A stretch of DNA of 64,000 nucleotides, from NCBI RefSeq assembly GCF_044324785.1, contig NZ_CP172127.1; one strand, written 5' to 3'. Below the pieces are notes generated by a model. The model was not told the origin of the DNA. It made no database searches and saw nothing but the letters and a program-made list of their open reading frames with translations. This DNA comes from Escherichia coli (GTDB taxonomy: Bacteria; Pseudomonadota; Gammaproteobacteria; Enterobacterales; Enterobacteriaceae). Made by a program: the position numbers and the translations under genes. Below are positions 37,337 through 64,000 of this stretch, piece after piece (positions within the stretch are counted from its first letter, which is position 1; every line of letters starts with the position of its first letter).

Positions 37337-38239
37337 ATGGCGAATCTTTATGACCTAAAAAAATTTGATCTGAATTTACTGGTCATATTTGAGTGTATTT
37401 ATCAACATCTCAGCATTAGTAAAGCGGCAGAATCATTATATATAACGCCCTCTGCTGTTAGTCAGTCGTTACAACGTTTACGTGCGCAATTTAATGACCC
37501 GTTATTCATTCGCTCAGGGAAAGGTATCGCGCCGACTACGACAGGGTTAAATCTGCATCATCATCTTGAGAAAAATCTCAGAGGCATTGAACAAACGATC
37601 AATATTGTTAATAAGTCTGAGCTAAAGAAAAATTTTATTATCTACGGTCCTCAGCTTATTTCTTGTACTAATAACAACATGCTAATCCGCTGTCTTAGAC
37701 AAGATACTTCAATCGATATAGAATGCCATGACATACTGCTTTCAGCTGAAAATGCCGAAGAACTGTTGGTTCAACGCAAAACTGACCTGGCAATTACACT
37801 ACAACCAGTAATTAGCCGCTCTGTCATCTGCATGCCGTTACATACTATTCGCAATTCTCTTATATGTAGCAACAAACATCCTCGTATTACCGATACCAGT
37901 AACTATGAACAAATTATCGCCGAAGAATTCACCTTGTTGATATCTAAATCAGCAGGGATTGACGAAATTCAAATGGACATAGATGAACGTTTTATGAACC
38001 GTAAAGTTTCATTTCGCAGTTCTTCTTTGTTGACGATAATTAATAGTATTTCTGTTACTGACTTATTGGGCATTGTGCCCACCGAACTGTACGATTTACA
38101 TCGTGATTTTTTGAAGTTACAAGAGATAAAACTGGAACGACCACTTCCTGCGGTTAAACTTTATATTTCCTATAACAAGGCTTCGTTGAACAACCTTGTC
38201 TTCTCACGATTCATAGATCGTTTAAATGATAGCTTCTGA
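37337..38239 (+). CDS. ybdO: LysR-family transcriptional regulator YbdO
   Basis: ORF track 37301..38239 trimmed to MANLYDLKKFD (300 aa); HTH; AT-rich, low-GC coding sequence. Confidence 0.88.
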   Translation: MANLYDLKKFDLNLLVIFECIYQHLSISKAAESLYITPSAVSQSLQRLRAQFNDPLFIRSGKGIAPTTTGLNLHHHLEKNLRGIEQTINIVNKSELKKNFIIYGPQLISCTNNNMLIRCLRQDTSIDIECHDILLSAENAEELLVQRKTDLAITLQPVISRSVICMPLHTIRNSLICSNKHPRITDTSNYEQIIAEEFTLLISKSAGIDEIQMDIDERFMNRKVSFRSSSLLTIINSISVTDLLGIVPTELYDLHRDFLKLQEIKLERPLPAVKLYISYNKASLNNLVFSRFIDRLNDSF

Positions 38240-45041: not shown

Positions 45042-45221
45042 AGTTGTTATCCGTGTGCATGTCCATAGAGATGTTACATTTTGTTTCTATAACATCTTTG
45101 TACAATTTAACAACACAGCAACCATGTAAATCGGAGTTGAAACCAATATTTAACTTAACAATGTTAACTCGATCACTCCGTTAACCGAGTTTTCCTGCAA
45201 TCTCATTTAATTCTGTCGGGT

Positions 45222-46383
<1,162 letters not shown>

Positions 46384-46384
<1 letters not shown>

Positions 46385-47241
46385 TATTTCACCTCGCGGG
46401 AGAGTAGCTTCCACCAGGCGTCGATGGTCGGTTTTTTCGCCAGCATGACAAAGTCGATATCGCCATGTACTTTGCGCCAGCGCGCCGCCAGCGCCATCAT
46501 CCGCACCGAATCCAGACCGTAGTCGATCAGGTTGTCGTCATCGAACGGTTCATCGGACTCGTCCAGCAACGGCAGGATCACCTCACGCAACGCCGCTTTG
46601 CTGGCGGGGACAGGTGCTGGCAGCAATTCTTCGGTCATCACCACCCGGCCAGAACGTCCGGCCACATATTTCAGCGACATCAAATGCTCGTCACGGCTGA
46701 AATCGGCCAGCGCATCTGCCACCATAAACGGTTTAATATCGCGCATAAATGCGTCCGTTGCGGTGGTCATACAGCCAATGTGGGCATATACCCCGGTAAT
46801 AATCAGCTGGTTACGTCCACTCTCTTTCAGCATTTGCTCCAGCGGGGAACGATGAAACGCGCTGTAGCGCCACTTCACCAGCACCGTGTCGTCGGCATCT
46901 GGCGTCAGGCTATCCACCACCTTTTGCTGTTCCGGCGAACGGGTCAGGCCAGGCCCCCACATATCATTCAACAGCGCCCGATCTTCATCGCTCTGCTCTT
47001 TCGGCTGGGCAGTGTAATAAACCGGGATATTGTGCTGTTTGCAGTAGTCGCGTAGTGCCGCAATATTCGCGATCACCTGCTCCATCATCGGGCAGTTCTC
47101 GCCCCAGAAGCTGACAAAATAGTCCTGCATATCATGGATTAACAACGCGGCACGTTGCGGTTCAAAGGCCCAGTCGACTTTATTCTTAGGGATATCGTGA
47201 GACTCCGGCAGTGCGTAAGCCTGTAATTTTGGAATAGCCAT
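46384..47241 (-). CDS. entB: Isochorismatase / aryl carrier protein EntB
   Basis: 285 aa; C-terminal carrier domain with phosphopantetheine site in YGLDSV. Confidence 0.95.
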
Positions 47242-47254
47242 CGTGTTCTCTCCT

Positions 47255-48865
47255 TCAGGCTGATGCGCGTGACGCCAGCCACTGACGTAATTGTTTTTTA
47301 TCGACTTTCCCGACCGCCGTCAGCGGAAGTGAATCCACACACTCCACGCGATCCGGTAATTTAAATTCGGCAATACCCTGTTCACGCAGGAAACGACGCA
47401 CCTGCACCGCGCGTAGAGGCTCTTTTACCACCAGATAAGCACAGCTTTTTTCGCCCATCAGCTCATCTTCCATGCTCACCAGTGCGGCGTAGATCACCGC
47501 CGGATGGCGCAGCAGCAGGTTTTCGATCTCTTCGGCAGCGATCTTCTCGCCGCCACGGTTGATCTGATCTTTCTCGCGCCCCTGCACGGTGATGTACCCC
47601 TCTGGATCAATAGAGATCAGATCGCCGGAACAGTAAAAACCGTTGGCATCAAAGGCGCTGGCATTGTGCTGCGGGCTTTTGTAATAGCCGCGGAAGGTGT
47701 ACGGACCGCGCGTCATCAGGCGTCCGACTTCCCCTTGCGGCAGTGGATTTCCTTCGGCATCGGCAACCCACACTTCATCGTCCGGACACATTGGATAGCC
47801 CTGGGTATGGATTATTTTCTCCGCGCTATCATCAAGTCGGGTGTAGTTCACCAGTCCTTCCGCCATGCCGAATACCTGCTGTAACTGGCAGCCAATCTCT
47901 GCGGGAATACGCGCCGCAAGCGTGGCAGAAAGACGTGCACCACCGACCTGTAACAGTTTCAGCGAGGCAAGCTGCGCCCGGCTTTCGCCTTCGGTCAGCG
48001 CCTGTAACCACAGGCTGACTGCGGGTGGCACCAGCGCGGTGACGTTGACCTGATGTTTTTCAATCAATGGGAAGCAGAGCGTGGCGCTGGGGTCGGCAGC
48101 CAGAACGACAGTGCCGCCAGCGAGAAATACGCCCAGCGATCCTGGCGAACTCATGGCGTAGTTATGAGCCGCCGGGATCGCGCACAGGTAGCGTGTCTGT
48201 TGTGTGAACTGACAAATATCGACGCTACGACGCACGCTGTAGTAATAGTCGTTATGAGTGCGCGGGATCAGTTTCGGTGTGCCGGTGGTGCCGCCGGAAA
48301 GCTGGAAATAGGCCACTTCATCAGCAGGTGACGGCGTGGCAGTAAAATCCTCAGCCGGATGGTTAATCGCATCCTGCAAATTATGCTCACCGCTGTCGTT
48401 GTGCAGTTGCACCACGCGAATGGAGGAATGCTCTGCAACAAATGTATTGAGGAAATCATCTCCGCTAAACAGCGCATGCTGGCGATCGGCAATCAGTAAC
48501 GCCGGTTCAATCTGGCTGGCATAGGCGTTCAGTTCACTACGCTGATGGCTGAACAGCGCCAGCACCGGTGCAACGCCCAGCTTCAGCAGCGCGAAAAAGG
48601 TAATATACAATTCAGCGACGTTACCCAGTTGTACCAGCGCGGTTTCACCAGGTTTAATGCCCTGACGGCGCAAACTACAGGCGAGGTTATCCGCCGCCTG
48701 ATTCAGCTCCCGGTAACTCAACTGCCGCTCGCCGTCGATGACCGCGATGCTGTCGCTTGCGGCATGACGGGTCAGAATGTCGGTCAGCGGCAAATCCTGC
48801 CAGTAGCCTTTTTCCCGATAGCGACGGGCAAATTCTTCCGGCCAGCGGGTGAATGGAATGCTCAT
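47255..48865 (-). CDS. entE: 2,3-dihydroxybenzoate-AMP ligase EntE
   Basis: ORF track trimmed to [10 protein letters not shown] (536 aa); adenylation core SGGTTGTPK. Confidence 0.95.
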
Positions 48866-48874
48866 CCTCACTCC

Positions 48875-50050
<1,176 letters not shown>

Positions 50051-50063
50051 ATCATCCTCCACA

Positions 50064-50100
50064 AAATGATAAAGGCTTTAATAATGATTATCATTTATAT
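50064..50100. promoter_or_regulatory. Fur box(es) in the divergent entC / fepB promoter
   Basis: AATGATAAA and ATAATGATTATCATTTA, close to the GATAATGATAATCATTATC consensus. Confidence 0.8.
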
Positions 50101-50238
50101 TTTCGGTCGCTAACCTAAAAGCAAACGCGCACTATGTCAACTCTTGAGGTAACGCAATCTGCAACTCGGGGTTGCATCTGGTTGTGGTTACAATGAAAAT
50201 GAGAAGCATTAACTTCATTAATAACAGGAAGCTGATTT

Positions 50239-51195
50239 GTGAGACTCGCCCCGCTCTACCGCAACGCCCTTCTATTAACAGGACTTTTGCTTTCAGGAAT
50301 AGCCGCAGTTCAGGCCGCCGACTGGCCGCGTCAGATTACTGACAGCCGTGGCACTCATACCCTGGAAAGCCAGCCGCAGCGTATTGTTTCCACCAGCGTC
50401 ACCCTGACCGGCTCACTGCTGGCGATTGATGCTCCGGTGATCGCCAGCGGCGCGACCACGCCAAATAACCGCGTAGCGGATGACCAGGGCTTTTTACGCC
50501 AGTGGAGCAAGGTGGCGAAAGAACGCAAACTGCAACGGCTCTATATCGGCGAACCGAGTGCAGAAGCCGTTGCCGCGCAAATGCCGGATCTGATTTTAAT
50601 TAGCGCAACCGGCGGGGATTCGGCGCTGGCGCTGTACGATCAGCTTTCCACCATCGCCCCAACATTAATCATCAATTACGACGACAAAAGCTGGCAGTCG
50701 CTGTTAACGCAGCTTGGCGAAATTACCGGGCATGAGAAACAAGCGGCAGAGCGGATTGCACAGTTTGATAAGCAACTGGCAGCGGCGAAAGAGCAAATCA
50801 AATTACCGCCGCAGCCGGTCACTGCCATTGTCTATACCGCCGCTGCACACAGTGCCAATCTCTGGACGCCGGAATCAGCACAAGGGCAGATGCTGGAACA
50901 ACTCGGCTTTACGCTGGCAAAGTTGCCCGCAGGGTTAAACGCCAGCCAAAGCCAGGGCAAACGCCATGACATCATTCAGCTTGGTGGAGAAAATCTGGCT
51001 GCAGGGTTAAACGGTGAATCGCTATTCCTGTTCGCCGGTGATCAGAAAGATACCGATGCGATTTATGCTAATCCGCTGCTCGCGCACCTGCCTGCAGTAC
51101 AAAACAAGCAGGTTTATGCGCTGGGAACCGAGACGTTCCGTCTGGATTACTACAGCGCCATGCAAGTGCTGGAACGGCTTAAGGCGCTGTTTTAA
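50239..51195 (+). CDS. fepB: Ferric enterobactin periplasmic binding protein
   Basis: 318 aa; signal peptide ending AVQA; GTG start. Confidence 0.94.
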
Positions 51196-51198
51196 GCA

Positions 51199-52449
51199 TT
51201 AACTGTCGGACGCTGTCACCTGCGGCGGCGTCTGGCGAAAACGCCGCAACTCCACCAGCACCAGCAATAACAACACGCCGATAATCAACAAACCAAAACC
51301 GCTCGCGCTTGCGGAAGCAACCGGTGTCATCATCGCGCCCAAACCGCCCAGCAGCGCCGCGCCTATGGCATCGCCCGTCACGTTTTGTGCCGTCCACAAA
51401 CCGTTAATCCGCCCTAACATCGCTTCCGGGGTTTGCGTTTGCAGCATTGTGTATTGCAGCAACGAACTAACCGCGCTCAGCCAGCCGAACAGCGCCAGAC
51501 AAACCACGCCTAAAATCCACATCGGCATCAAGCCAAACAGCCCAATGGCGAGGAACGATCCCAGCGTGGAGAGCAGCATCAATAACCCTGGTCGCGCGCT
51601 ATGTGCCAGCTTCCCGCTGGTTAACGCGCCAATAGCCGCACCGAGCGGGATCGCCGCATAGAGAAAACCAATCTGTGCCGCCGACATCTGCCAGTTGTCA
51701 GCCAGCGCCGGATACAGTACCCGCACCGCGCTCGCCATCGTCAATAAACCACCCAACAGCGCAATCCCTCCTACCAGCGGGCTGGCGAGCAGAAAACGAA
51801 ATCCTGCCAGTAATGATTTCAACGGATGCTCACGCGGCTGCGGTGGTGGTGGTAACGCCGGAAGGCTTAACAACGGTAGCAAGGTAATAAACGTGCCCGC
51901 CGCCGCCAGTCCGTAGTTCCAGGCTACGCCTCCGGTCGCCAGCAATAAACCGCCAATCATGGGCGAAATCACCGATCCCAGACGCACGGTCAACATGGTG
52001 ATCGCCCCGGCCTGCATTAAGTTTTCACGCCCTACCAGTGCTGGTGTCGCCGCCAGTAGCGCCGTAACGCCAAGTGATGCGAAAAAACCATCCCATAAAC
52101 CGAGTAAATAGATTGCCAGCAAAGATGGCTCCGGCAGCAACGCGTTCAGGCACAGTCCAATGAAGCCAATGCCACAGGTGCCGCGCGCCAGCAAAATCAC
52201 TTTTTTGCGCTCATAGCGATCCGCCAGCACACCGCCGACCATCAGGCCAACAAACATCGCGCCGCCGGTCAGCGTCACCGAAAGCCCCACCTGCCAGGTA
52301 GAATGCGTCATCATCTGGATCTGCACCGGTACCGCGACACCGAGCAAACCCAGAGACACAATTGAGATAAAACGAGCGAGGAATACTGCGCGAAACGCCG
52401 GGTGCGTTTTCAACAGGCTGAGGTTAAGCAGCCAGGATTGTTTATTCAT
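51199..52449 (-). CDS. entS: Enterobactin exporter EntS (MFS)
   Basis: 416 aa, 12-TM MFS transporter. Confidence 0.94.
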
Positions 52450-52522
52450 TACAATGCCTTGCCATCAAATATTTTAAATACCTATTCTTAGGCTGCACAT
52501 GCTAACATATCCAAATAAGATC

Positions 52523-52547
52523 GATAACGATAATTAATTTCATTATC
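52523..52547. promoter_or_regulatory. Fur box in the divergent entS / fepD promoter
   Basis: GATAACGATAATTAATTTCATTATC. Confidence 0.8.
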
Positions 52548-52559
52548 ATGGAAGTTCGT

Positions 52560-53564
52560 ATGTCTGGTTCTGTTGCCGTGACACGCGCCATTGCCGTGCC
52601 CGGATTGCTGTTATTACTGATTATCGCGACGGCATTAAGCCTGCTCATTGGGGCAAAATCACTCCCCGCTTCCGTAGTGCTGGAGGCCCTCTCCGGCACC
52701 TGCCAGAGCGCCGACTGCACCATCGTGCTCGACGCGCGACTGCCGCGCACCCTTGCCGGTTTACTGGCAGGCGGCGCGCTTGGGCTTGCCGGGGCGCTGA
52801 TGCAAACCCTCACCCGAAACCCACTTGCCGACCCCGGCTTGCTTGGTGTGAACGCCGGAGCCAGCTTTGCCATTGTGCTGGGTGCGGCGCTGTTTGGTTA
52901 CTCATCCGCGCAGGAACAACTGGCGATGGCCTTCGCCGGGGCGCTGGTGGCCTCATTGATTGTTGCCTTTACCGGCAGTCAGGGCGGAGGGCAGTTAAGT
53001 CCGGTGCGTTTAACCCTGGCGGGCGTGGCGCTGGCGGCGGTGCTGGAAGGGCTGACCAGCGGCATCGCCCTGCTTAATCCTGACGTCTACGATCAACTGC
53101 GTTTCTGGCAAGCCGGTTCGCTGGATATTCGTAATTTACACACCTTAAAAGTAGTGCTGATCCCGGTGCTGATCGCCGGAGTAACCGCGCTATTACTGAG
53201 CCGCGCACTGAACAGTTTAAGCCTTGGCAGTGACACCGCGACGGCGCTGGGCAGTCGCGTGGCGCGCACACAGTTGATTGGTCTGCTGGCGATTACCGTG
53301 CTTTGTGGTAGTGCGACGGCGGTAGTTGGCCCGATTGCCTTTATTGGCCTGATGATGCCGCACATGGCGCGCTGGCTGGTAGGTGCCGATCATCGCTGGT
53401 CGCTGCCCGTCACGCTACTTGCCACCCCTGCCCTGCTGCTGTTTGCCGATATCATCGGGCGGGTGATTGTGCCCGGCGAACTGCGCGTTTCTGTAGTCAG
53501 TGCCTTTATTGGCGCACCGGTGCTGATCTTCCTCGTGCGACGTAAAACGCGAGGTGGCGCATGA
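52560..53564 (+). CDS. fepD: Ferric enterobactin ABC permease FepD
   Basis: ORF track 52548..53564; I prefer the ATG at 52560 (334 aa) because the upstream ATG sits inside the Fur box; either start is possible. Confidence 0.92.
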   Translation: MSGSVAVTRAIAVPGLLLLLIIATALSLLIGAKSLPASVVLEALSGTCQSADCTIVLDARLPRTLAGLLAGGALGLAGALMQTLTRNPLADPGLLGVNAGASFAIVLGAALFGYSSAQEQLAMAFAGALVASLIVAFTGSQGGGQLSPVRLTLAGVALAAVLEGLTSGIALLNPDVYDQLRFWQAGSLDIRNLHTLKVVLIPVLIAGVTALLLSRALNSLSLGSDTATALGSRVARTQLIGLLAITVLCGSATAVVGPIAFIGLMMPHMARWLVGADHRWSLPVTLLATPALLLFADIIGRVIVPGELRVSVVSAFIGAPVLIFLVRRKTRGGA

Positions 53565-54553
53565 TTTACGTCTCTCGCCGATTAATTATCACCTGTTTGC
53601 TGCTAATTACCGCCTGTGTGGTTGCAGGTATCTGGGGATTACGCAGCGGTGCCGTCACGCTGGAAACCTCGCAGGTATTCGCCGCGCTGATGGGCGATGC
53701 GCCGCGCAGTATGACGATGGTGGTCACCGAATGGCGTTTACCACGCGTGCTGATGGCGCTGTTAATTGGCGCGGCACTGGGCGTCAGCGGCGCGATTTTT
53801 CAGTCGCTGATGCGTAACCCGCTCGGCAGCCCTGACGTAATGGGCTTTAACACCGGGGCGTGGAGCGGCGTGCTGGTGGCGATGGTGCTGTTTGGTCAGG
53901 ACCTGACGGCTATCGCCCTGGCAGCAATGGCGGGCGGCATTGTCACCTCGCTGCTGGTCTGGCTGCTCGCATGGCGTAACGGCATCGACACCTTTCGGTT
54001 GATTATTATTGGTATCGGCGTTCGCGCCATGCTGGTGGCCTTTAATACCTGGCTGTTGCTGAAAGCGTCTTTAGAAACGGCGCTAACAGCGGGTTTGTGG
54101 AATGCCGGATCGCTCAACGGCCTGACGTGGGCAAAAACCTCGCCTTCCGCACCCATCATTATATTGATGCTCATTGCCGCCGCCTTGCTGGTGCGGCGGA
54201 TGCGATTGCTGGAGATGGGTGATGATACCGCATGTGCGCTGGGCGTCAGCGTCGAACGTTCGCGGCTGTTAATGATGCTGGTCGCCGTAGTACTTACCGC
54301 AGCTGCCACTGCCCTGGCGGGGCCGATTTCCTTTATTGCTTTAGTCGCGCCGCACATTGCCCGACGCATTAGCGGCACCGCTCGCTGGGGGCTGGCCCAG
54401 GCGGCGCTGTGCGGAGCGTTGTTACTGCTGGCGGCCGATCTCTGTGCTCAACAACTGTTTATGCCGTATCAACTTCCGGTTGGCGTCGTTACCGTCAGCC
54501 TCGGCGGTATTTACCTTATCGTCTTGTTAATTCAGGAGTCTCGCAAAAAATGA
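53561..54553 (+). CDS. fepG: Ferric enterobactin ABC permease FepG
   Basis: 330 aa; 4-nt overlap with fepD. Confidence 0.94.
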   Translation: MIYVSRRLIITCLLLITACVVAGIWGLRSGAVTLETSQVFAALMGDAPRSMTMVVTEWRLPRVLMALLIGAALGVSGAIFQSLMRNPLGSPDVMGFNTGAWSGVLVAMVLFGQDLTAIALAAMAGGIVTSLLVWLLAWRNGIDTFRLIIIGIGVRAMLVAFNTWLLLKASLETALTAGLWNAGSLNGLTWAKTSPSAPIIILMLIAAALLVRRMRLLEMGDDTACALGVSVERSRLLMMLVAVVLTAAATALAGPISFIALVAPHIARRISGTARWGLAQAALCGALLLLAADLCAQQLFMPYQLPVGVVTVSLGGIYLIVLLIQESRKK

Positions 54554-55365
54554 CCGAATCAGTAGCCCGTTTGCGTGGCGAACAGTTAACCCTCGGATAT
54601 GGCAAATATACCGTTGCGGAAAATCTGACTGTAGAAATACCTGATGGTCACTTCACGGCAATTATCGGGCCAAATGGCTGCGGTAAATCCACGTTACTGC
54701 GGACCTTAAGCCGCCTGATGACGCCTGCTCACGGGCATGTCTGGCTGGATGGCGAGCACATTCAACATTACGCCAGTAAAGAGGTTGCACGCCGGATTGG
54801 TCTGTTGGCGCAGAATGCTACCACGCCGGGCGATATCACCGTGCAGGAGCTGGTGGCGCGTGGGCGTTACCCGCATCAACCGCTGTTTACCCGTTGGCGC
54901 AAAGAGGATGAAGAAGCGGTAACGAAAGCGATGCAGGCCACGGGAATAACTCATCTGGCAGATCAAAGCGTGGATACCCTTTCTGGCGGGCAACGCCAGC
55001 GAGCGTGGATCGCGATGGTGCTAGCCCAGGAAACGGCAATTATGCTGCTCGATGAACCCACGACCTGGCTGGATATCAGTCATCAGATTGATCTACTGGA
55101 ACTGTTAAGCGAACTGAACCGCGAGAAAGGCTATACCCTGGCGGCGGTGCTGCACGATCTTAATCAGGCCTGTCGTTACGCCAGCCATTTGATTGCATTG
55201 CGGGAAGGGAAAATTGTTGCTCAGGGAGCGCCGAAGGAGATTGTCACTGCTGAATTGATCGAGCGCATTTATGGTCTGCGCTGCATGATTATTGACGATC
55301 CGGTAGCCGGAACTCCGCTTGTGGTGCCGCTCGGACGAACGGCACCTTCAACCGCAAATAGTTAA
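54550..55365 (+). CDS. fepC: Ferric enterobactin ABC ATPase FepC
   Basis: ORF track 54409..55365 trimmed to MTESVARLRG (271 aa); Walker A GPNGCGKST and signature LSGGQRQR. Confidence 0.94.
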   Translation: MTESVARLRGEQLTLGYGKYTVAENLTVEIPDGHFTAIIGPNGCGKSTLLRTLSRLMTPAHGHVWLDGEHIQHYASKEVARRIGLLAQNATTPGDITVQELVARGRYPHQPLFTRWRKEDEEAVTKAMQATGITHLADQSVDTLSGGQRQRAWIAMVLAQETAIMLLDEPTTWLDISHQIDLLELLSELNREKGYTLAAVLHDLNQACRYASHLIALREGKIVAQGAPKEIVTAELIERIYGLRCMIIDDPVAGTPLVVPLGRTAPSTANS

Positions 55366-56495
55366 ACTAAGTGGTCTGCTATCATGGCATCCTGTTTTCT
55401 GGATGCCATCGCATAGCGCAACAGCACGCCACCACAAGCCACCATCCCGCCGATCATCGCAGAAAGGATCACAATAATCGCCTTACCCGGACCGTCTTTT
55501 TTCACTGGCAATGACGGGCTTAACTGATATTTAAACGGCGTAAAATTCACATCGTTGATATTTGCTTTTGTTAACTGCTCAACAAGATACTGACGATTAC
55601 GTAATTCACCGTTCAGTTCCGCAACGTCAGTAACCGCTTTTTCAATTTCCAGTTTGCGTTCAATACCGTCTGCGCCGAGAGAAATAGAGAAATCGGGGTC
55701 ATCTTTAACGGCCTGACCATTACTGTATACGGGCTTTTTAATTCCTGCCGCGTTGGCAATGTCGAGTGAATAATTGAGGCGCTGAATGTTTGCATCAAGT
55801 TGATTTTTCGTTTTAATGCGATCCTGAGCCAGTTTTTCTTTTTCAAACTGGGTTTTGATCTCCAGTTTATTACGGACGTTTTCTATCGACTCTTTCACCA
55901 CCAACGCAGAGATATAATCGATATACCCGCTCAAAACGGTCTGCGCCTCTTCACTGGTTGGCGCGGTAAAACTGAGCGTCCAGGAGGTATACAGTGACGG
56001 TTCATCTTTTTTCTTACTGGCATTGTCATCAACCGCTTTCATTTTTTCGCTCAATGCGACGATAGCTCGATGCAAATCCAGTTCGTCGATTTTCGCCTCT
56101 TTTAATTGGTCCATCACATAAGGTGATGAGCGCAGGTACTCTTCTAGTAAGCTAACAGACTGAAACTTCTTGATAAACAGGTTAAATGCACCGCCACGGT
56201 CGATATTAACATCGAGATCAAGAACGCGGAGTTTGGTAAAGGTTTTCTCCAGGTCCTGCCACTGAATGGCTTCGGCGGGAGTAATGACGGCTGAGCTGGT
56301 CCATTTTTGCGGCAGGATGAAAGAGATCAGCAATCCTGTGCAGGCAAACGCAAAAATGACCGCCATGACCGTTTTTTTGGCCCGCCATAAAACTTCGATT
56401 AGATTAAGTAAATCAATTTCATTATTACTGGGCGACGCCAGAGGATACTCGGGAAAATGAGCGTCACTTCCCTGTTTAATATTCATTGATGACAT
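55362..56495 (-). CDS. fepE: Polysaccharide co-polymerase (Wzz-like) FepE
   Basis: 377 aa; two TM segments flanking a periplasmic coiled-coil region. Confidence 0.92.
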   Translation of the reverse strand: MSSMNIKQGSDAHFPEYPLASPSNNEIDLLNLIEVLWRAKKTVMAVIFAFACTGLLISFILPQKWTSSAVITPAEAIQWQDLEKTFTKLRVLDLDVNIDRGGAFNLFIKKFQSVSLLEEYLRSSPYVMDQLKEAKIDELDLHRAIVALSEKMKAVDDNASKKKDEPSLYTSWTLSFTAPTSEEAQTVLSGYIDYISALVVKESIENVRNKLEIKTQFEKEKLAQDRIKTKNQLDANIQRLNYSLDIANAAGIKKPVYSNGQAVKDDPDFSISLGADGIERKLEIEKAVTDVAELNGELRNRQYLVEQLTKANINDVNFTPFKYQLSPSLPVKKDGPGKAIIVILSAMIGGMVACGGVLLRYAMASRKQDAMIADHLV

Positions 56496-56666
56496 GGGGT
56501 ATAACCTGAAAATGAGTCCAATAGGGGGAAATCTCCACGGCGCTCACTTTACCAGTTGGTGAGAATTATCCGAAGCTGAAGTTTGTAAATTACTCCCACT
56601 GAATGCAACATTCACTCTATTTCAGAGAAATACCTACCAAATTTATAAATTAAACAAATGATAAAC

Positions 56667-56699
56667 CCATAATTATTTTCTGTAATTATGGGTTTATAG
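56667..56699. terminator. AT-rich hairpin between fepE start and entF end
   Basis: AACCCATAATTAT-tttctgt-AATTATGGGTT. Confidence 0.5.
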
Positions 56700-56710
56700 A
56701 TAATATAAAT

Positions 56711-59700
56711 TTACTTATTTAGCGTCGCCCGAATAATCGGCCCAATTTTTTCAAACGCCACCGGAGAGATAATATCCACATGCGCACAATCCTGACGATA
56801 GATATCCAGCTCATCAATCCACGGTGCCCAGGCCTGTTCAGGACTCATACCTTCCTGAAGCGTGCGTTCGGCAACAAATAGCGTCGCTTTACCATCAAAC
56901 GGTACGCTATGAGCTGTCGTCAGCAGGCGCACAGCATCAGCGTAGTTGCCTTCAATGGTGGAAAACAATTCCGTGGAAGTACTTCCCTGCTGTGCCGCCA
57001 GGAAGGCTTCGCGCTCGCGGTTAATCTCCGCCAGCACTTCCGGGTCCAGACCATTAGCCTCTTTTTCCTGCCAGTTTTGCGTTTCTGGCGGCCAGGTATC
57101 CAGCAAGCCAAGAAATGCCACCTGTTCGCCACGGGCACGCAGTCGCGCCGCAATGCCCTGCGCCAGCGTACCGCCAAGTGAATAACCCAGCAGGTAATAA
57201 GGACCGTGCGGTTGTTGTTCAAGTAACGTTGCCAGATGCGCTTCGCAGACTTCATCCAGGTTTGCCGCCGTCTGCATGGGGCCATGAGGGCGCGGCGACT
57301 GAATGCCGATAATCGACCATTGTGGATCGAGATAACGCGAAAGCACGCTAAACTGCCAGGCAAAACCGGATGCCGGATGGAAACAAAACAGCGTCGGGCC
57401 ATTACCTTCACGCAACGTCAGAATGGTTTCGAATCCCATGCGCTGGGTGCTGTCTTCTTCACCATCAATAATCGTTGCCAGTTTGGCGACAGTTGACGCG
57501 ACCATCACCTGCCCCGGCGTCACCTGACGAGCAAACTGTCGACTTAACTGCGCTGCCAGTTTCATTGCCAGTAGCGAATGACCACCAAGCGCGAAGAAGT
57601 CAGCATCGGCATCCTGCACGTCACAACCCAGCAACGACGCGAATGCCGCAGCGATAATCGTTTCACTGCCCGCTTTCGGCGCACACCCCGGCGCTTGTGC
57701 TTTCAGTTCAGGCAACGGTAAGGCTTTGCGATCCAGCTTGCCGTTGGCGCTAAGAGGTAACTGTGGAAGTTGCAGCAGAACCACTGGCACCATATGTGGT
57801 GGCAATGTTTCGCGAAGCTGCGCCTGTAATGCGCTGGTATCCAACGGCAGGCCCGATTGCGACACCAGATAGCCCACCAACTGACGCGCATCACCACCAG
57901 TGGCTGCCGCCTGGTTAATCACACAGGCGTGGGTAACGGCTTGTTCGACATCCGGCAGCGCCTGCATCACGCGATCAATTTCGCCTAGTTCGATACGCTG
58001 CCCGCGAATTTTTAGCTGATCGTCACTGCGCCCGAGGTACTCCACTGCGCCGTTATCCAGCCAGCGGGCCACATCGCCGGTACGGTACATCCGTTCACCT
58101 GGGGCAAAAGGATCGGCAATAAAGCGGCTGGCGGTCAGATCGGGTCGTCCAAGATACCCCTGCGCCAGTTGAATACCGGTGAGATAGAGATCTCCCGCCA
58201 CACCCGGCGGCACCGGATGCATCATCGCATCAAGAATACGCAGGCCCGTATTCCACACCGGATAACCAATCGGCACACTGCTGCCGCGCACCTGTGCCAG
58301 TTCCTCGCCAAAAGCCGGATACCAGCTGACATCTACCGCCGCTTCCGTCGGGCCATATAGATTATGCAACGGCGCGCCGGTTAACTGTTGCCATTCGCGG
58401 CATAAATCAGCGGGTAAGGCCTCACCACTACAGAAAACCTGTTTCAACGTCGCGCAATTCTGGCGAGCGGTTTGCGGAGTCAGCGATGCAACAAATGCCG
58501 CCAGCATTGAGGGAACAAAGTGCGTGGTCGTTACACCATATTCGGCAAAGAATTGCTGCATAGCGAGCGGGTCGCGGTGCGCTTCCGGTTCAGCCATCAC
58601 CAGTTTAGCCCCGGCAATAAACGGCCAGAAAAACTCCCACACCGAGACATCAAAACTGCACGGCGTTTTTTGGGCAACGACATCTTCGCCTGTAAGCGGA
58701 TAATGATTTTGCATCCAAAGCAGGCGGTTAACGATAGCCGTCTGCCCGACCATTACCCCTTTCGGCCTGCCGGTGGAGCCAGAGGTAAAGATGATATAGG
58801 CCGTGTGGTGCGGTTGTGAAAGTTTCAGCGGCGCACTGCCCTGTGGGGTAAGCGGGGCGTTATAGCAAAGGCTGGTTAAATCTGGAACATCGGCAAAGCG
58901 CGGCAGTTGATCGTCGGTGGTGATTAACAGCGACGGACGCGCATCTTCCAGCATCATTTTCAGGCGATCGTCCGGATAGCCGGTATCCAGCGGTAACCAG
59001 GCCGCACCAGCCTCAACAATTGCATGTAGCGCCAGAGTCAAAAAGACCGAGCGCGGTAGCGCCACCGCCACGCTGTCGCCTGGTTTAACGCCGCGCTCAC
59101 GCAGCAGATTCGCCAGCGCCACCACCTGCTCGCGCATTTCCCGATAGCTGAACTGGTAACGCGCATCTGCCAGCGCCGGAGCATCCGGTGTTTTTGCCGC
59201 TTGTTCTGCCACCAGCGCGCTAAGCGTGGTTTCTGGAATCTCAACCTGAGTGGCGTTGATATGCGCTAACTGCGCATACTCACCTGGCAGCATAATATCG
59301 ACATCGCCGCACAACAGCGCCGGATCCGCGGCGAACTGGGCAATCAGCATTTTCAGGCGTTCAGCGTGTTGAATTAACGTTGGCTCAGCGTAACGCTGTT
59401 TATTGGCGAGGATCTCAATACTCAAATCACCGTGTTCATCCGGGAACAGGGCCAGTTCAAGGTCATTAACCGGACCGGTTGCCAGGGTATGGGTTTGCGT
59501 CTGAACACCAGGAATATCCAGTTGGTAATCAAATACCTTGATATTGAGTACCGGACCAAACAGCGGTTCATCATCTGCCGCTCGCCCGCTGTCACGGACA
59601 ATTTGTTCGGCATCGTAACGTTGATGACGACGCATTTTTTTCAGTTGTGCTGCCAGTCGGGTTGCCAGTTGCGGCAGCGTTTCTTGCACCGCAATGTGAA

Positions 59701-60592
59701 TCCCCAGCGGCAAAACGTTGAGCACGGGTCCGGTAGCCGTCAGCGCCGCCGAGCCCAGTCGACGCATAAAGATAAATCCGGCGGCGTAGTCCATGCGATT
59801 GCACAATCGCCCCAGCCACAAAGCCGTCAGCGCAAGGGCTAAATCGGTACGCTGCACTCCTGAAAGTTGCATAGCCAGCTGGCGGAATTCCCCGTCGGTA
59901 AACTCCAGTTTCAGGCGCAAAATATCTGCCGAAGCGCTGCGCCCCGGTAAAGGTGCCGGAGAAAGTGACGCGGGCGGTGGCAGTTGACGACGCTGTTCCG
60001 CCCAGAATGCCGCATCACGCTGCCAGGCTTCGCTTTCGCGGTATTGCTGGTACTCTTCCACTACATCAGCGAAAGGCGTAAACGGCGAAGCAGGCGTTGG
60101 TTCGCCACGCAGCAATGCGCAGTAAATATTGGCGATCTGGCGTGTAATGGCCGGGAAACTGAAGCCATCGACCAGCAAATGGTGATAACGCTGATACCAG
60201 TACCAGCGGTTATCCGCCACCTGTATCAGCTGATGAAAGACCAGTGGTTTACCACTATCGACGCGCAAATCTTGTTGCAAATCCGCCTGCATTAATGCCC
60301 GCGCAGTACCGTGCGGATCAATGTTGGTTCGCAGGTCGATAATTTCTGGCAATTCGAACGTCTGCGCATCATCGACCCACTGCCAGACTTCGCCGTTATC
60401 TTCCGTAAAACGCATCCGCAACGTATCTGCTTGCGCTAGTCCGGCAACCACCGCGCGGGCCAGTAATGGCGCATCAACCTCTCCGGTTAACTCAACGTAA
60501 TGCGCCACGCTCCAGGCGGAGGGTAAATCCGACAGTTTTTCTGCCATCCAGATGCCGGGCTGTGCGGCGACCAAAGGTAAATGCTGGCTCAT
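56711..60592 (-). CDS. entF: Enterobactin NRPS EntF (C-A-PCP-TE, serine-activating)
   Basis: 1293 aa; PCP motif LGGHSL; thioesterase GYSLGG. Confidence 0.96.
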   Translation of the reverse strand: MSQHLPLVAAQPGIWMAEKLSDLPSAWSVAHYVELTGEVDAPLLARAVVAGLAQADTLRMRFTEDNGEVWQWVDDAQTFELPEIIDLRTNIDPHGTARALMQADLQQDLRVDSGKPLVFHQLIQVADNRWYWYQRYHHLLVDGFSFPAITRQIANIYCALLRGEPTPASPFTPFADVVEEYQQYRESEAWQRDAAFWAEQRRQLPPPASLSPAPLPGRSASADILRLKLEFTDGEFRQLAMQLSGVQRTDLALALTALWLGRLCNRMDYAAGFIFMRRLGSAALTATGPVLNVLPLGIHIAVQETLPQLATRLAAQLKKMRRHQRYDAEQIVRDSGRAADDEPLFGPVLNIKVFDYQLDIPGVQTQTHTLATGPVNDLELALFPDEHGDLSIEILANKQRYAEPTLIQHAERLKMLIAQFAADPALLCGDVDIMLPGEYAQLAHINATQVEIPETTLSALVAEQAAKTPDAPALADARYQFSYREMREQVVALANLLRERGVKPGDSVAVALPRSVFLTLALHAIVEAGAAWLPLDTGYPDDRLKMMLEDARPSLLITTDDQLPRFADVPDLTSLCYNAPLTPQGSAPLKLSQPHHTAYIIFTSGSTGRPKGVMVGQTAIVNRLLWMQNHYPLTGEDVVAQKTPCSFDVSVWEFFWPFIAGAKLVMAEPEAHRDPLAMQQFFAEYGVTTTHFVPSMLAAFVASLTPQTARQNCATLKQVFCSGEALPADLCREWQQLTGAPLHNLYGPTEAAVDVSWYPAFGEELAQVRGSSVPIGYPVWNTGLRILDAMMHPVPPGVAGDLYLTGIQLAQGYLGRPDLTASRFIADPFAPGERMYRTGDVARWLDNGAVEYLGRSDDQLKIRGQRIELGEIDRVMQALPDVEQAVTHACVINQAAATGGDARQLVGYLVSQSGLPLDTSALQAQLRETLPPHMVPVVLLQLPQLPLSANGKLDRKALPLPELKAQAPGCAPKAGSETIIAAAFASLLGCDVQDADADFFALGGHSLLAMKLAAQLSRQFARQVTPGQVMVASTVAKLATIIDGEEDSTQRMGFETILTLREGNGPTLFCFHPASGFAWQFSVLSRYLDPQWSIIGIQSPRPHGPMQTAANLDEVCEAHLATLLEQQPHGPYYLLGYSLGGTLAQGIAARLRARGEQVAFLGLLDTWPPETQNWQEKEANGLDPEVLAEINREREAFLAAQQGSTSTELFSTIEGNYADAVRLLTTAHSVPFDGKATLFVAERTLQEGMSPEQAWAPWIDELDIYRQDCAHVDIISPVAFEKIGPIIRATLNK

Positions 60593-60807
60593 TGTGCCTC
60601 CTGCAACTGGGTGAAATTCGCCGGTGTCAGAGTACGCCAGTGGGCTTCAAGCCACTGCTGGCAGGACGCCTGTGACTGCGGCTGACACACAACGTCCCAG
60701 CCTGCCGGTAAGGCGCATTGTTGCGGCCACAGACTGAATTGCCCCTGCGCATTGCGCAAAATGTAAAACACGCCCTGCGGATCATCGAAGGGATTACTGA
60801 ATGCCAT
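60589..60807 (-). CDS. ybdZ: MbtH-like protein YbdZ
   Basis: ORF track trimmed to MAFSNPFDDPQG (72 aa); Trp-rich MbtH signature; 4-nt overlap with entF. Confidence 0.92.
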   Translation of the reverse strand: MAFSNPFDDPQGVFYILRNAQGQFSLWPQQCALPAGWDVVCQPQSQASCQQWLEAHWRTLTPANFTQLQEAQ

Positions 60808-60809
60808 AT

Positions 60810-62012
60810 TCAACTCCTGTCATGGAAAAGTGGTTGCCAGAGGTCGATTAGCCCCTGCATCAAGCCACCGCGCCAACAAAGCGCATCATGTCCGCCGTCA
60901 ACCTGACGCCAGAAAATGGATTCTTTTATGGGGTGTAATTGCGCATACAGCGCCTGATTGGCCCGCATGATCATCGGCTCGCGAATACCCGCTTCCAGCA
61001 CAATGCGCAGACCTTCGGCGCTAACTTCACCAGCTTTAAGTTGCTCAAGTAAAACACCTTCTTGCTGCCCGCCCCGATGCGGCCACCAGTACGATCCTGA
61101 CTGGCTTAATACACAGCCAAAGCGTTCAGGCCAGTGCAGTCCGGCATACAGCGCGGAAAGCCCACCAAAACTCTGCCCGGCGACCACGGTGCGATCGGCG
61201 CGATCGCTAAAAGGGGCAATAGCTTTCACCAGGGGTAATAACTCTTGCTGTACTGCCAGCCAGAAATCCGCATTACACGGCAGTTCGTGGGCGCGGTGCG
61301 TGGTGTCGATAGCGTCGATCAACACATACACGGCGGGAGGAAGTTGCCGACGATGGGTCAGCGAAGTCAGCGCAGGCCAGACGGGCATACTCTGCGCCCA
61401 AAATTCGCCATCAAGCAAAACTGCCAGCGGGCGTTCTTCTGCTGTTGCATCGCCGGTGGTAAAAATCCATACACGGCGTGAATTTTTCAGCCGCTCACTT
61501 TTCCAGATAATTTCTTTGGCAGGCGTTTCTGGCGCTTGCGGACAATCCCATCCCGGTTGCAGAGGCGCTTGCGGCATTTCGAGTGCAGAAACAGCGTGCC
61601 CTCGCCCGCCTTTCCAGCTTTGTGGATTCAGCGGATCGGCTATCGCCTGGGGTAATAGTTTTCGCCAGCCTTCGCGTAATTCGAGGCGATCGGGGGATGG
61701 TGCAGAAAAAATGTCATCGCGTTCAGTAGGAATAAAGCAGTAGCTGCCGCGCCAGTTGGCATTGAGTTGTGTCGTCCACTGCCAAACATCGGTTCCTGCA
61801 ATTCGCTGCATCGACTGGGGCTGGCTGTTCTGATGGTGATCGGTCACACCAGTGATGTAGACCCATACCCGCTTTATCGTCGAGTATTCTTCAGAACCTT
61901 GGGGATCACGCCACCAGAAAGTGACCTCAAACATTTCGTCATTCAGACGCTGCCATTCCGGGCCATGTTTCGACTGCCACCAGCTCTCACTTCCTACTTT
62001 TAACGCCGTCAC
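60810..62012 (-). CDS. fes: Enterochelin esterase Fes
   Basis: 400 aa ORF; serine hydrolase motif GQSFGG; the true start may be an internal Met. Confidence 0.93.
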   Translation of the reverse strand: MTALKVGSESWWQSKHGPEWQRLNDEMFEVTFWWRDPQGSEEYSTIKRVWVYITGVTDHHQNSQPQSMQRIAGTDVWQWTTQLNANWRGSYCFIPTERDDIFSAPSPDRLELREGWRKLLPQAIADPLNPQSWKGGRGHAVSALEMPQAPLQPGWDCPQAPETPAKEIIWKSERLKNSRRVWIFTTGDATAEERPLAVLLDGEFWAQSMPVWPALTSLTHRRQLPPAVYVLIDAIDTTHRAHELPCNADFWLAVQQELLPLVKAIAPFSDRADRTVVAGQSFGGLSALYAGLHWPERFGCVLSQSGSYWWPHRGGQQEGVLLEQLKAGEVSAEGLRIVLEAGIREPMIMRANQALYAQLHPIKESIFWRQVDGGHDALCWRGGLMQGLIDLWQPLFHDRS

Positions 62013-62059
62013 ACCATAACCCCATGTTTACTGTGCAATTTTTCATTGATTGCAGAAAT

Positions 62060-62090
62060 ATATTGATAATATTATTGATAACTATTTGCA
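62060..62090. promoter_or_regulatory. Fur box in the divergent fes / fepA promoter
   Basis: TGATAATATTATTGATAACTATTTGC. Confidence 0.8.
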
Positions 62091-62253
62091 TTTGCAATAG
62101 CGTAATGGCGCGCCGTGGGAAGCGCGGACATTAATTAACCAACTGCACTGCGTGTCTTTCAGGATCAAAGGTTTTCGCGGTAGCGGGGTGCGTCGTATTG
62201 ATGACGACCATGCCCGACAGTTGCAATTCGTGGCAAAAATGCAGGAATAAAAC

Positions 62254-64000
62254 AATGAACAAGAAGATTCATTCCCTGGCCTTGTTGGTCAATCTGGGGA
62301 TTTATGGGGTAGCGCAGGCACAAGAGCCGACCGATACTCCTGTTTCACATGACGATACTATTGTCGTTACCGCCGCCGAGCAGAACTTACAGGCGCCTGG
62401 CGTTTCGACCATCACCGCAGATGAAATCCGCAAAAACCCCGTTGCCCGCGATGTGTCGGAGATCATCCGTACCATGCCAGGCGTTAACCTGACCGGTAAC
62501 TCCACCAGTGGTCAGCGTGGTAATAACCGCCAGATTGATATTCGCGGCATGGGTCCGGAAAACACGTTGATTTTGATTGACGGCAAACCGGTCAGCAGCC
62601 GTAACTCGGTACGTCAGGGCTGGCGTGGCGAGCGCGATACCCGTGGTGATACCTCCTGGGTGCCACCTGAAATGATTGAACGTATTGAAGTTCTGCGTGG
62701 TCCGGCAGCTGCGCGTTATGGCAACGGCGCAGCGGGCGGCGTGGTTAACATCATTACCAAAAAAGGCAGCGGCGAGTGGCACGGCTCCTGGGACGCATAT
62801 TTCAATGCGCCAGAACATAAAGAGGAAGGTGCCACCAAACGCACTAACTTTAGCCTGACCGGTCCGCTGGGCGACGAATTCAGCTTCCGCTTGTATGGCA
62901 ACCTCGACAAAACTCAGGCTGACGCGTGGGATATCAACCAGGGCCATCAGTCCGCGCGTGCCGGAACGTATGCCACGACGTTACCAGCCGGGCGCGAAGG
63001 GGTGATCAATAAAGATATTAACGGCGTGGTGCGCTGGGACTTCGCACCATTGCAATCGCTGGAACTGGAAGCGGGTTACAGCCGCCAGGGTAACCTGTAT
63101 GCGGGCGATACCCAGAACACCAACTCTGACGCTTACACTCGCTCGAAATATGGCGATGAAACCAACCGCCTGTATCGCCAGAACTACTCGCTGACCTGGA
63201 ACGGTGGCTGGGATAACGGCGTGACCACCAGCAACTGGGTGCAGTACGAACACACCCGTAACTCGCGTATTCCGGAAGGTCTGGCGGGCGGTACCGAAGG
63301 GAAATTTAACGAAAAAGCGACACAGGATTTCGTCGATATCGATCTTGATGACGTGATGCTGCACAGCGAAGTTAACCTGCCGATTGATTTCCTCGTTAAC
63401 CAGACGCTGACGCTGGGTACGGAGTGGAATCAGCAGCGGATGAAGGACTTAAGTTCCAACACCCAGGCACTGACCGGAACGAATACCGGTGGCGCTATTG
63501 ATGGCGTGAGTGCCACCGACCGTAGCCCGTATTCAAAAGCAGAAATTTTCTCGCTGTTTGCCGAAAACAACATGGAGCTGACTGACAGCACCATCGTAAC
63601 GCCGGGGCTGCGTTTCGATCATCACAGTATTGTCGGCAATAACTGGAGCCCGGCGCTGAACATATCGCAAGGTTTAGGCGATGACTTCACGCTGAAAATG
63701 GGCATCGCCCGTGCTTATAAAGCGCCGAGCCTGTACCAGACTAACCCGAACTACATTCTCTACAGTAAAGGTCAGGGCTGCTATGCCAGCGCGGGCGGCT
63801 GCTATCTGCAAGGTAATGATGACCTGAAAGCAGAAACCAGCATCAACAAAGAGATTGGTCTGGAGTTCAAACGCGACGGCTGGCTGGCGGGCGTCACCTG
63901 GTTCCGTAACGATTATCGCAATAAGATTGAAGCGGGCTATGTGGCTGTAGGGCAAAACGCAGTCGGCACCGATCTCTATCAGTGGGATAACGTGCCGAAA
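62254..64000 (+). CDS. fepA: Ferric enterobactin TonB-dependent outer-membrane receptor FepA, 3'-truncated by the window edge
   Basis: Hand translation from the ATG: MNKKIHSLALLVNLGIYGVAQAQEP...; TonB box DTIVVTA; open to the window end, so absent from the ORF track. Confidence 0.93.

Follow-up and report, generated by a model that had tools for sequence, protein, structure and literature searches.

Fur operators of the enterobactin genes in the divergent spacers of an Escherichia coli genome

How many Fur operators serve the divergent promoters of the Escherichia enterobactin cluster, where do they lie relative to the transcription starts, and does their position tell us where the genes begin? 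We addressed this question in a window of 64,000 nucleotides from Escherichia coli (NCBI RefSeq assembly GCF_044324785.1, contig NZ_CP172127.1), which is the whole stretch of DNA analysed here. A sequence-only reading of the window had proposed three bidirectional promoters with clear Fur boxes in the entC/fepB, entS/fepD and fes/fepA spacers between 50063 and 62253. These outer edges had to be corrected: entC starts at the ATG at 50050 and not at the GTG at 50062 of its open reading frame, from which 50063 derives, and 62253 is one base short. The true spacers span 50051-50238, 52450-52559 and 62013-62254, respectively.

A Fur weight matrix was trained on 16 validated K-12 sites, all located outside the ent cluster. 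The leave-one-out scores of these training sites ranged from 15.5 to 29.2 bits, and the weakest of them, at 15.5 bits, was used as the threshold. Among the ∼64,000 positions of the window, the six top scores all fell inside the three divergent spacers:

50077-50095, Fur matrix site of entC, 25.4 bits, rank 1 in the window
52526-52544, Fur matrix site of entS/fepD, 18.7 bits, rank 2
62074-62092, Fur matrix site of fes/fepA, 17.8 bits, rank 3
52520-52538, Fur matrix site of entS/fepD, 15.7 bits, rank 4
50083-50101, Fur matrix site of entC, 15.2 bits, rank 5
50192-50210, Fur matrix site of fepB, 12.7 bits, rank 6

The leave-one-out minimum was exceeded at entC (25.4 bits), entS/fepD (18.7 and 15.7 bits) and fes/fepA (17.8 bits), and among the four operators fepB alone stayed below it. 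Outside the spacers, nothing in the 64 kb scored over 10.9 bits (573-591, inside ybeQ), followed by a site of 8.8 bits at 37594-37612, both of them sub-threshold. A further palindrome, GATAATTATC, which precedes the fepE start site in K-12, was also considered as a Fur site and rejected: the matrix gave it −2.4 bits for the K-12 sequence and −6.9 bits for that of the window, where it carries one substitution. Matches to the classical Fur consensus, for which we used the 19-mer GATAATGATAATCATTATC, were found as follows:

52529-52547, minus strand, classical match in entS/fepD, 16/19
50080-50098, classical match at entC, 15/19
50195-50213, classical match at fepB, 15/19

The fes/fepA box matched the classical 19-mer at only 13/19 positions, and it is "clear" solely by the matrix or by a hexamer reading. 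Positive-scoring sites overlapped one another in a 6-bp register (starts 50065/50077/50083, 50192/50198, 52520/52526/52532 and 62062/68/74), a pattern of overlapping Fur sites that is expected for Fur polymerisation and was described by Chen 2007.

The boxes were then set against experimental data from K-12. Footprint coordinates of Chen 2007 were converted from NC_000913.2 to NC_000913.3, with the offsets verified by the paper's own gene-start distances; the DNase I footprints (Chen 2007 Table 3) mapped exactly to 50056-50104, 52510-52578 and 62057-62104 of the window. Start-site 51-mers of K-12 (Kim 2012 Table S1) also matched the window exactly, and by them every operator lies either on a promoter or a short way downstream of one. 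Relative to these transferred starts, the operators occupy −17 to +9 at fepB, +1 to +49 at entC, +6 to +36 at fepD, the −35 region at entS and −53 to −6 at fepA. Promoter hexamers were located by script; a generic sigma-70 consensus scan did not recover the promoters mapped by experiment, and the start-site data were used in its place.

Conservation points in the same direction. Sites of at least 17 bits occurred at fixed distances in 76/76 (entC/fepB), 79/79 (entS/fepD) and 62/62 (fes/fepA) Enterobacteriaceae loci. Klebsiella pneumoniae entC, whose promoter has been footprinted by Fur (PMC7298118), and the orthologous Enterobacteriaceae spacers share synteny and box positions with the window, the box lying roughly 35 nt away from the entC start, some 25-31 nt from fepD and some 70 nt from fes. 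The box sequences vary slightly; that of entS/fepD, for instance, reads AACGATAATTAATTTCATT in Escherichia (18.7 bits) and AACGATAATTACTATCATT (23.1 bits) in most other genera.

Spacers of 57-69% AT could by their composition yield matches to a motif that is AT-rich too, and a generic promoter scan placed TATAAT-like hexamers inside the boxes, as would be expected if the matches were chance products of promoter DNA and no Fur sites at all. However, composition-preserving shuffles of each spacer reached the observed maximum in only 0/2000 (entC/fepB), 3/2000 (entS/fepD) and 2/2000 (fes/fepA) trials, and whole-window dinucleotide shuffles gave 0.115 sites at or over 15.5 bits, where the real sequence has 4. 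The exact coincidence with the K-12 footprints and the conservation of the sites, at fixed positions, in all enterobacterial loci examined speak against chance as well, so that we regard such an origin as vanishingly improbable and effectively refuted. The boxes of the sequence-only reading were thus borne out in all three spacers, both by the matrix, whose top six scores stand far over the shuffled controls, and by the published footprints. Judged from sequence and position, they are almost certainly the canonical Fe2+-Fur operators of the Escherichia enterobactin regulon, arranged as four clusters of overlapping sites in three spacers. Fur occupancy and iron-dependent repression in this strain would follow by analogy with the K-12 literature.

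The fourth cluster comes from the entC/fepB spacer, in which we located the following elements:

50056..50104, minus strand, Fur operator of entC (entCEBAH), by matrix and exact match to the K-12 footprint
50104..50140, minus strand, entC promoter, −35 TTGACA 50135-50140, 17-nt spacer, −10 TAGGTT 50112-50117
50172..50208, plus strand, fepB promoter, −35 TTGCAT 50172-50177, 17-nt spacer, −10 GAAAAT 50195-50200
50192..50216, plus strand, Fur operator of fepB, overlapping the −10 and +1, by matrix and consensus (15/19)
50208..50241, plus strand, fepB leader of 31 nt, with an AU-rich stretch, Shine-Dalgarno AGGAAG 50226-50231 and GTG 50239

At entC, the main site of 25.4 bits is overlapped by those at 50083-50101 (15.2 bits) and 50065-50083 (8.3 bits), and the operator extends to the entC Shine-Dalgarno at 50055-50060. 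Exact mapping of the K-12 51-mers put the transcription starts at 50104 for entC and 50208 for fepB, 104 bp apart, and no shared operator was found between them: each promoter has a separate operator, and the two operators are about 100 bp distant from one another. An earlier vector study likewise described iron-controlled bidirectional expression from this spacer, with the entC box downstream of its own +1 and the fepB box overlapping its own −10/−35 (PMC5020551). A single shared operator cluster is thus seen at entS/fepD and fes/fepA, but not at entC/fepB, which consists of two back-to-back promoter-operator units.

The entS/fepD spacer holds the following elements:

52491..52515, both strands, overlapping opposed core promoters of entS and fepD, with K-12 starts on 100% identical sequence
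52510..52578 (outer limits those of the K-12 footprint), both directions, entS/fepD Fur operator, by matrix and exact footprint match
52548..52562, plus strand, fepD translation start region, with in-frame ATG 52548, Shine-Dalgarno GGAAG 52550-52554 and the real ATG 52560

Transcription of fepD starts at 52515 from an extended −10 TGcTAACAT (52500-52508, plus), and that of entS at 52491, with a minor start at 52463, from an extended −10 TGtTAGCAT (52499-52507, minus). One operator cluster with one footprint serves both directions; its core sites at 52520-52538 (15.7 bits), 52526-52544 (18.7 bits) and 52532-52550 (3.9 bits) overlap the −35 region of entS and cover +6 to +36 of fepD. The K-12 fepD-entS (ybdA) region was 100% identical over the 151 nt compared, with no detectable sequence difference and with the same footprint, starts, opposed extended −10s and single Fur cluster. 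Its bidirectional promoter-operator was reportedly characterised by Christoffersen in 2001 and Lavrrar in 2002. Early microarrays were without significant Fur repression of fepD-entS (Chen 2007).

This box had been said to overlap the upstream-most in-frame ATG of fepD, and the overlap had been taken as support for the downstream ATG at 52560. The overlap is partly correct: the classical box ends at 52547 and merely abuts the ATG at 52548-52550, whereas the weak site 52532-52550 and the K-12 footprint do cover it. The start at 52560 was right as well, but the argument for it was a non sequitur, since the box position cannot tell the two ATGs apart when the transcription start at 52515 precedes both and the K-12 footprint spans both. 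What supports the start is the GGAAG 5 nt upstream of 52560, the K-12 annotation, in which FepD has 334 aa (as it has for strain N3 in RefSeq), and the fact that the second ATG is conserved and the first is not. The second ATG with its GGGAxG motif was present in 24/24 representative species aligned, whereas at the position of the first, Citrobacter and Salmonella have AGG; in Klebsiella and Raoultella a stop codon comes after it, and in Kluyvera it falls in another reading frame. Translation from 52548 would give a protein of 338 aa beginning MEVR; this ATG shares the fepD frame, is part of the mRNA and is conserved in the five Escherichia sequences examined (the window and four other genomes), but it has no Shine-Dalgarno (upstream lies aatttcattatc) and it overlaps the very GGAAG serving ATG 52560, which together with the species distribution makes its use very unlikely. 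fepD starts at 52560.

In the fes/fepA spacer, too, there is a single operator:

62057..62104, both directions, single fes/fepA Fur operator, by matrix and exact match to the K-12 footprint
62075..62110, plus strand, fepA promoter, −35 TTGATA 62075-62080, 17-nt spacer, −10 TAGCGT 62098-62103
62062..62097, minus strand, candidate fes promoter, predicted, −35 TTGCAA 62092-62097, 17-nt spacer, −10 TAATAT 62069-62074

The cluster comprises the main site of 17.8 bits and a second one at 62062-62080 (9.4 bits) under one footprint, and a block of about 45 bp at the operator is nearly invariant across 22 genera. The fepA start maps exactly from K-12 to 62110, upstream of the fepA ATG at 62255. Kim 2012 Table S1 lists no start for fes; the candidate fes promoter, interleaved with that of fepA, would start transcription near 62062, ahead of the fes GTG at 62012. 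K-12 has the same operator and fepA promoter, and its single 48-bp footprint maps exactly; the only differences lie beyond the operator, in the fepA 5′ UTR, where one base is substituted at about 62188 and another at about 62197. The K-12 fepA-fes bidirectional control region is said to have been worked out by Hunt, Pettis and McIntosh in 1994 and by Escolar in 1998. A palindrome at the fepA start (about 62107-62127) is conserved; considered as an RNA structure it was rejected, as its fold was no better than that of shuffled sequence (z-score 0.30), and Rfam gave no family match within 44000-64000.

Taken from K-12 to this strain, the arrangement would work as follows. With sufficient iron, Fur dimers would bind, polymerise along each cluster and block RNA polymerase. 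The core promoter would be covered at fepB, where the operator lies over the −10 and +1, and at the single fes/fepA operator, which lies over the −35 and −10 of fepA and over the candidate fes promoter interleaved with them; the entS/fepD operator would cover the −35 region of entS. At entC (+1 to +49) and fepD (about +6 to +36), the block would fall just downstream of the start, within the polymerase footprint. Under iron limitation, Fur would be released and six transcription units de-repressed, namely entCEBAH, fepB, entS, fepDGC, fes-ybdZ-entF(-fepE) and fepA(-entD). These operators are already known, being textbook K-12 almost base for base, and the main proposal of the sequence-only reading agrees with the literature nearly word for word. 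The finding is mainly a quality check, as that reading had also judged: the ent/fep annotation is coherent, with fepD at 52560, entC at 50050 and fepB at GTG 50239, and the regulatory map of K-12 can be transferred nearly unchanged to this genome.

The sole non-textbook element is a polymorphism of the fepB leader. The K-12 fepB-entC promoter-operator regions were reportedly defined by Brickman in 1990 and by Elkins and Earhart in 1989. K-12 and the window are identical from entC through fepB +3, with the same two non-overlapping boxes, promoters and starts, but the entC/fepB spacer measures 188 nt in the window and 374 nt in K-12, in which a 186-bp dispersed-repeat insertion from fepB +5 lengthens the leader from 31 nt to the published 217 nt. 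About half of E. coli genomes, with K-12 among them, have the insertion; the repeat-free 31-nt leader of the window is the ancestral allele, and the K-12 leader was derived from it by repeat insertion. Owing to the insertion, the 3′ end of Fur box 1, that of fepB, reads ...GCATTATT in K-12 and ...GCATTAAC in the window, and the fepB footprint region is the same in both save for its last 8 nt. The first fepB site scores 12.7 bits in both, whereas the second, at 50198-50216, scores 4.8 bits in the window and 18.7 bits in K-12, in which the insertion creates a strong additional Fur site.

These scores raise the question whether fepB is under direct Fur control here, or only weakly or not directly so, its core TGAAAATGAGAAGCATT being kept as promoter −10/+1 and not for Fur. 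Across genera the core scores only 0.4-14.4 bits, reaching at least 12.7 bits in 22/76 loci, and the published fepB footprint and dimer-binding measurements quoted by Chen 2007 were obtained on the K-12 sequence with its insertion-derived ATTGAT. Nevertheless, only five sites in the 64 kb outscore the 12.7-bit one, which agrees with the classical box at 15/19 and lies over the −10 and +1, a position at which Fur represses even when its occupancy is moderate, and fepB has been listed in a Fur regulon conserved among nine strains, whose leaders may be of either allele. We consider weak or merely indirect control of fepB improbable and retain fepB among the Fur operators. It is a tentative idea, less likely than not, that the leader difference is functional; one half of the species would then differ systematically from the other in how strongly Fur represses fepB and in the post-transcriptional control of this gene, and operator data for K-12 fepB would not transfer to short-leader strains. 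The footprints, dimer counts and translational-enhancer results of K-12 fepB should not be extrapolated to genomes with the short leader, which make up roughly half of E. coli and include that of the window.

The enterobactin cluster of Escherichia occupies 44-64 kb of the window in reversed orientation relative to K-12, with entH, entA, entB, entE and entC (minus strand), fepB (plus), entS (minus), fepD, fepG and fepC (plus), fepE, entF, ybdZ and fes (minus), and finally fepA (plus), which is cut by the window end. Collinearity with E. coli extends over the whole window (ybeQ, leuS to cit, ahpCF, cstA to ent). None of the 5,426 complete E. coli genomes compared carried a window-identical sequence; the best match among them was strain N3 (98.3-99.3%; by segment, 99.3% for 1-25 kb, 98.5% for 25-50 kb and 98.9% for the ent region). 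The window therefore comes from an Escherichia or Shigella lineage outside that genome set. Corrected gene starts set the limits of the three divergent spacers.

Divergent spacers and the gene starts that limit them
50051-50238 (188 nt): entC/fepB spacer; entC ATG 50050, minus strand; fepB GTG 50239, plus strand
52450-52559 (110 nt): entS/fepD spacer; entS ATG 52449, minus strand; fepD ATG 52560, plus strand
62013-62254 (242 nt): fes/fepA spacer; fes GTG 62012, minus strand; fepA ATG 62255, plus strand

For entC, GTG 50062 was rejected as merely the start of the longest ORF, and GGAGGA (50055-50060) precedes ATG 50050; the left boundary of 50063 drawn by the sequence-only reading therefore falls inside the entC leader.

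A 19-nt Fur weight matrix was trained on 16 K-12 Fur sites (fhuA, gpmA, fiu, sufA, ydiE, yoeA, cir, mntH, exbB, yqjH, bfd, ryhB, sodA, fecA, fecI and fhuF; coordinates from Table 4 of Chen et al. 2007, PMC2189734), excluding the ent cluster to avoid circularity, and each coordinate conversion was verified by the published distance to the gene start. Leave-one-out scores of the training sites ranged from 15.5 to 29.2 bits. The top six scores of the whole window all fell within the three divergent spacers.

Highest-scoring Fur sites of the window
50077-50095: 25.4 bits, entC/fepB spacer, entC side
52526-52544: 18.7 bits, entS/fepD spacer
62074-62092: 17.8 bits, fes/fepA spacer
52520-52538: 15.7 bits, entS/fepD spacer
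50083-50101: 15.2 bits, entC/fepB spacer, entC side
50192-50210: 12.7 bits, entC/fepB spacer, fepB side

Four sites reached at least 15.5 bits, against 0.115 in whole-window dinucleotide shuffles, and the observed maximum of each spacer was attained by 0/2000 (entC/fepB), 3/2000 (entS/fepD) and 2/2000 (fes/fepA) per-spacer shuffles. The proposal of Fur boxes in all three divergent spacers was thus borne out by the scan and its shuffle controls. Matches to the classical 19-mer numbered 16/19 in entS/fepD, 15/19 at both entC and fepB, and only 13/19 in fes/fepA. Positive-scoring sites in each cluster followed a 6-bp register, the same pattern as reported for footprinted Fur regions (Chen et al. 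2007). Outside the spacers the top score was 10.9 bits, at GTTGAGAAAGATTATCAGA in the ybeQ coding region (573-591), which lies under the validated-site threshold.

K-12 DNase I footprints (Chen 2007 Table 3) were placed on the window after coordinate conversion; three matched exactly, and that of fepB corresponded except for its last 8 nt.

K-12 Fur footprints on the window
50056-50104: entC, exact match, extending to the entC Shine-Dalgarno
~50190-50220: fepB, last 8 nt different in the window
52510-52578: fepD-entS, exact match
62057-62104: fepA-fes, exact match

Relative to K-12, the entS/fepD spacer was 100% identical, the fes/fepA spacer differed at two positions, both in the fepA 5' UTR, and the entC/fepB spacer was identical from entC to fepB +3 and diverged beyond. 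K-12 genome-wide start sites (Kim et al. 2012 Table S1, PMC3415461) also placed exactly, except for one mismatch in the fepE 51-mer, and were combined with promoter hexamers found by script.

Start sites and promoter elements
50104, minus: entC start site; TTGACA-17-TAGGTT, operator downstream (+1 to +49)
50208, plus: fepB start site; TTGCAT-17-GAAAAT, operator across -10 and +1
52491 (minor 52463), minus: entS start site; extended -10 TGtTAGCAT, 52499-52507
52515, plus: fepD start site; extended -10 TGcTAACAT, 52500-52508
56538, minus: fepE start site; 51-mer with one mismatch
62110, plus: fepA start site; TTGATA-17-TAGCGT, within the single fes/fepA operator

Together they revealed three different layouts. 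As far as the operators are concerned, the earlier description of Fur-box bidirectional promoters holds for entS/fepD and fes/fepA, with one operator cluster each, but not for entC/fepB, which consists of two separate promoter-operator units. There, two non-overlapping promoters stand back to back with start sites 104 bp apart, in agreement with the 'two distinctly protected regions' of Chen 2007 and with the fepB-side box 1 overlapping its -10/-35 and the entC-side box 2 downstream of its +1 (PMC5020551). The entS and fepD extended -10 elements are one DNA stretch read from opposite strands, with start sites 24 bp apart, and a single operator cluster (52520-52550, fepD +6 to +36) also covers the entS -35 region. 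The abstract of Christoffersen 2001 reportedly describes 'overlapping and opposing promoter elements', in line with this layout. A fes start site is absent from Kim et al. 2012 Table S1. A candidate fes promoter (TTGCAA-17-TAATAT, minus strand) would be interleaved with that of fepA. Consistent with this candidate, Hunt 1994 is said to describe divergent promoters that overlap, together with just one Fur site.

Sites, statistics, positions, conservation and identity to footprinted DNA were all demonstrated for these spacers, and the best-supported explanation is classical holo-Fur repression. Holo-Fur would bind four operator clusters governing six transcription units and would stop RNA polymerase either by occluding the promoter or by occupying DNA just beyond the start site. 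Fur occupancy and the iron response in the window's strain are expected by analogy with K-12 and other strains. Such control had been called expected biology, rightly so, as PMC4911079 states it in almost the same words.

ATG 52560 is the right fepD start, because GGAAG (52550-52554) lies 5 nt upstream of it and is overlapped by the first ATG, RefSeq gives FepD 334 aa in K-12 and N3, and the second ATG with its GGGAxG motif is present in all of 24 representative species. In Citrobacter and Salmonella the first-ATG position reads AGG; in Klebsiella and Raoultella a stop codon comes after it, and in Kluyvera it lies out of frame. The start had been argued from a Fur box overlapping ATG 52548; that argument fails, because an mRNA beginning at 52515 contains both ATGs and the K-12 footprint extends over the two of them. 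Moreover, with its end at 52547, the classical box merely abuts the first ATG. An in-frame ATG 52548 occurs in every Escherichia sequence examined, with an in-frame equivalent in Enterobacter, Leclercia and Lelliottia.

A FepD-seeded scan with one genome per species yielded 80 loci across Enterobacteriaceae, nearly all keeping the window's gene order. All spacers that could be delimited held a Fur site scoring 17 bits or more, namely 76/76 entC-fepB (~35 nt away from the start of entC), 79/79 entS-fepD (25-31 nt from that of fepD) and 62/62 fes-fepA spacers (~70 nt from that of fes), and the fes/fepA operator block of ~45 bp was nearly invariant in 22 genera. The Escherichia entS/fepD box (52526-52544), AACGATAATTAATTTCATT, is weaker at 18.7 bits than the AACGATAATTACTATCATT (23.1 bits) of most other genera (loci L024-L099). 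The fepB-proximal site is less clear-cut: its core is kept across loci, but scores range between 0.4 and 14.4 bits, and part of the conservation may thus reflect promoter function.

The entC-fepB spacer measures 374 nt in K-12, 299 nt in N3 and 188 nt in the window. Since the spacer is also ~188 nt long elsewhere in Escherichia and in Citrobacter, Klebsiella and most other genera, the short form is ancestral. The K-12-type junction was found in 2,755 of 5,426 complete E. coli genomes; its 186-bp insert is a GC-rich dispersed repeat (median 6 places per genome), and N3 carries a 111-bp version. By eye, we take the 186-bp insert to resemble the boxC repeat family. Since it begins at fepB +5, the leader is 31 nt in the window (50208-50238, set against L002 15039-15224) and 217 nt in K-12; since it supplies ATTGAT, the second fepB Fur site scores 18.7 bits in K-12 and its window equivalent 4.8 bits. 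The window leader keeps the AU-rich stretch, Shine-Dalgarno and GUG start, features associated in K-12 with a translational enhancer and with RyhB pairing. This leader/operator polymorphism is the one observation here that is mildly new.

Minor features were also recorded. In the entF-fepE spacer (56496-56710), a weak start site belonging to fepE itself is known from K-12 (2 reads), and the palindrome upstream of it reads GATAATTATC in K-12 and GATAATTCTC in the window; as a Fur site it was rejected at -2.4 and -6.9 bits, respectively. A GC-rich palindrome, GGCGCGCC...GCGCG (62107-62127), spans the fepA start site and is kept in many genera; the stability of the RNA hairpin predicted there was not above that of shuffled sequence (z-score 0.30). 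Distances in Chen 2007 suggest that an older K-12 annotation started fes 78 nt further downstream (374 aa). Upstream of the fes GTG, the block AACCyyATGTTTA (62015-62030, minus; TAAACATGGGGTT on the fes strand) is kept across genera and includes an out-of-frame ATG and GGGG (62020-62023), the likely fes Shine-Dalgarno.
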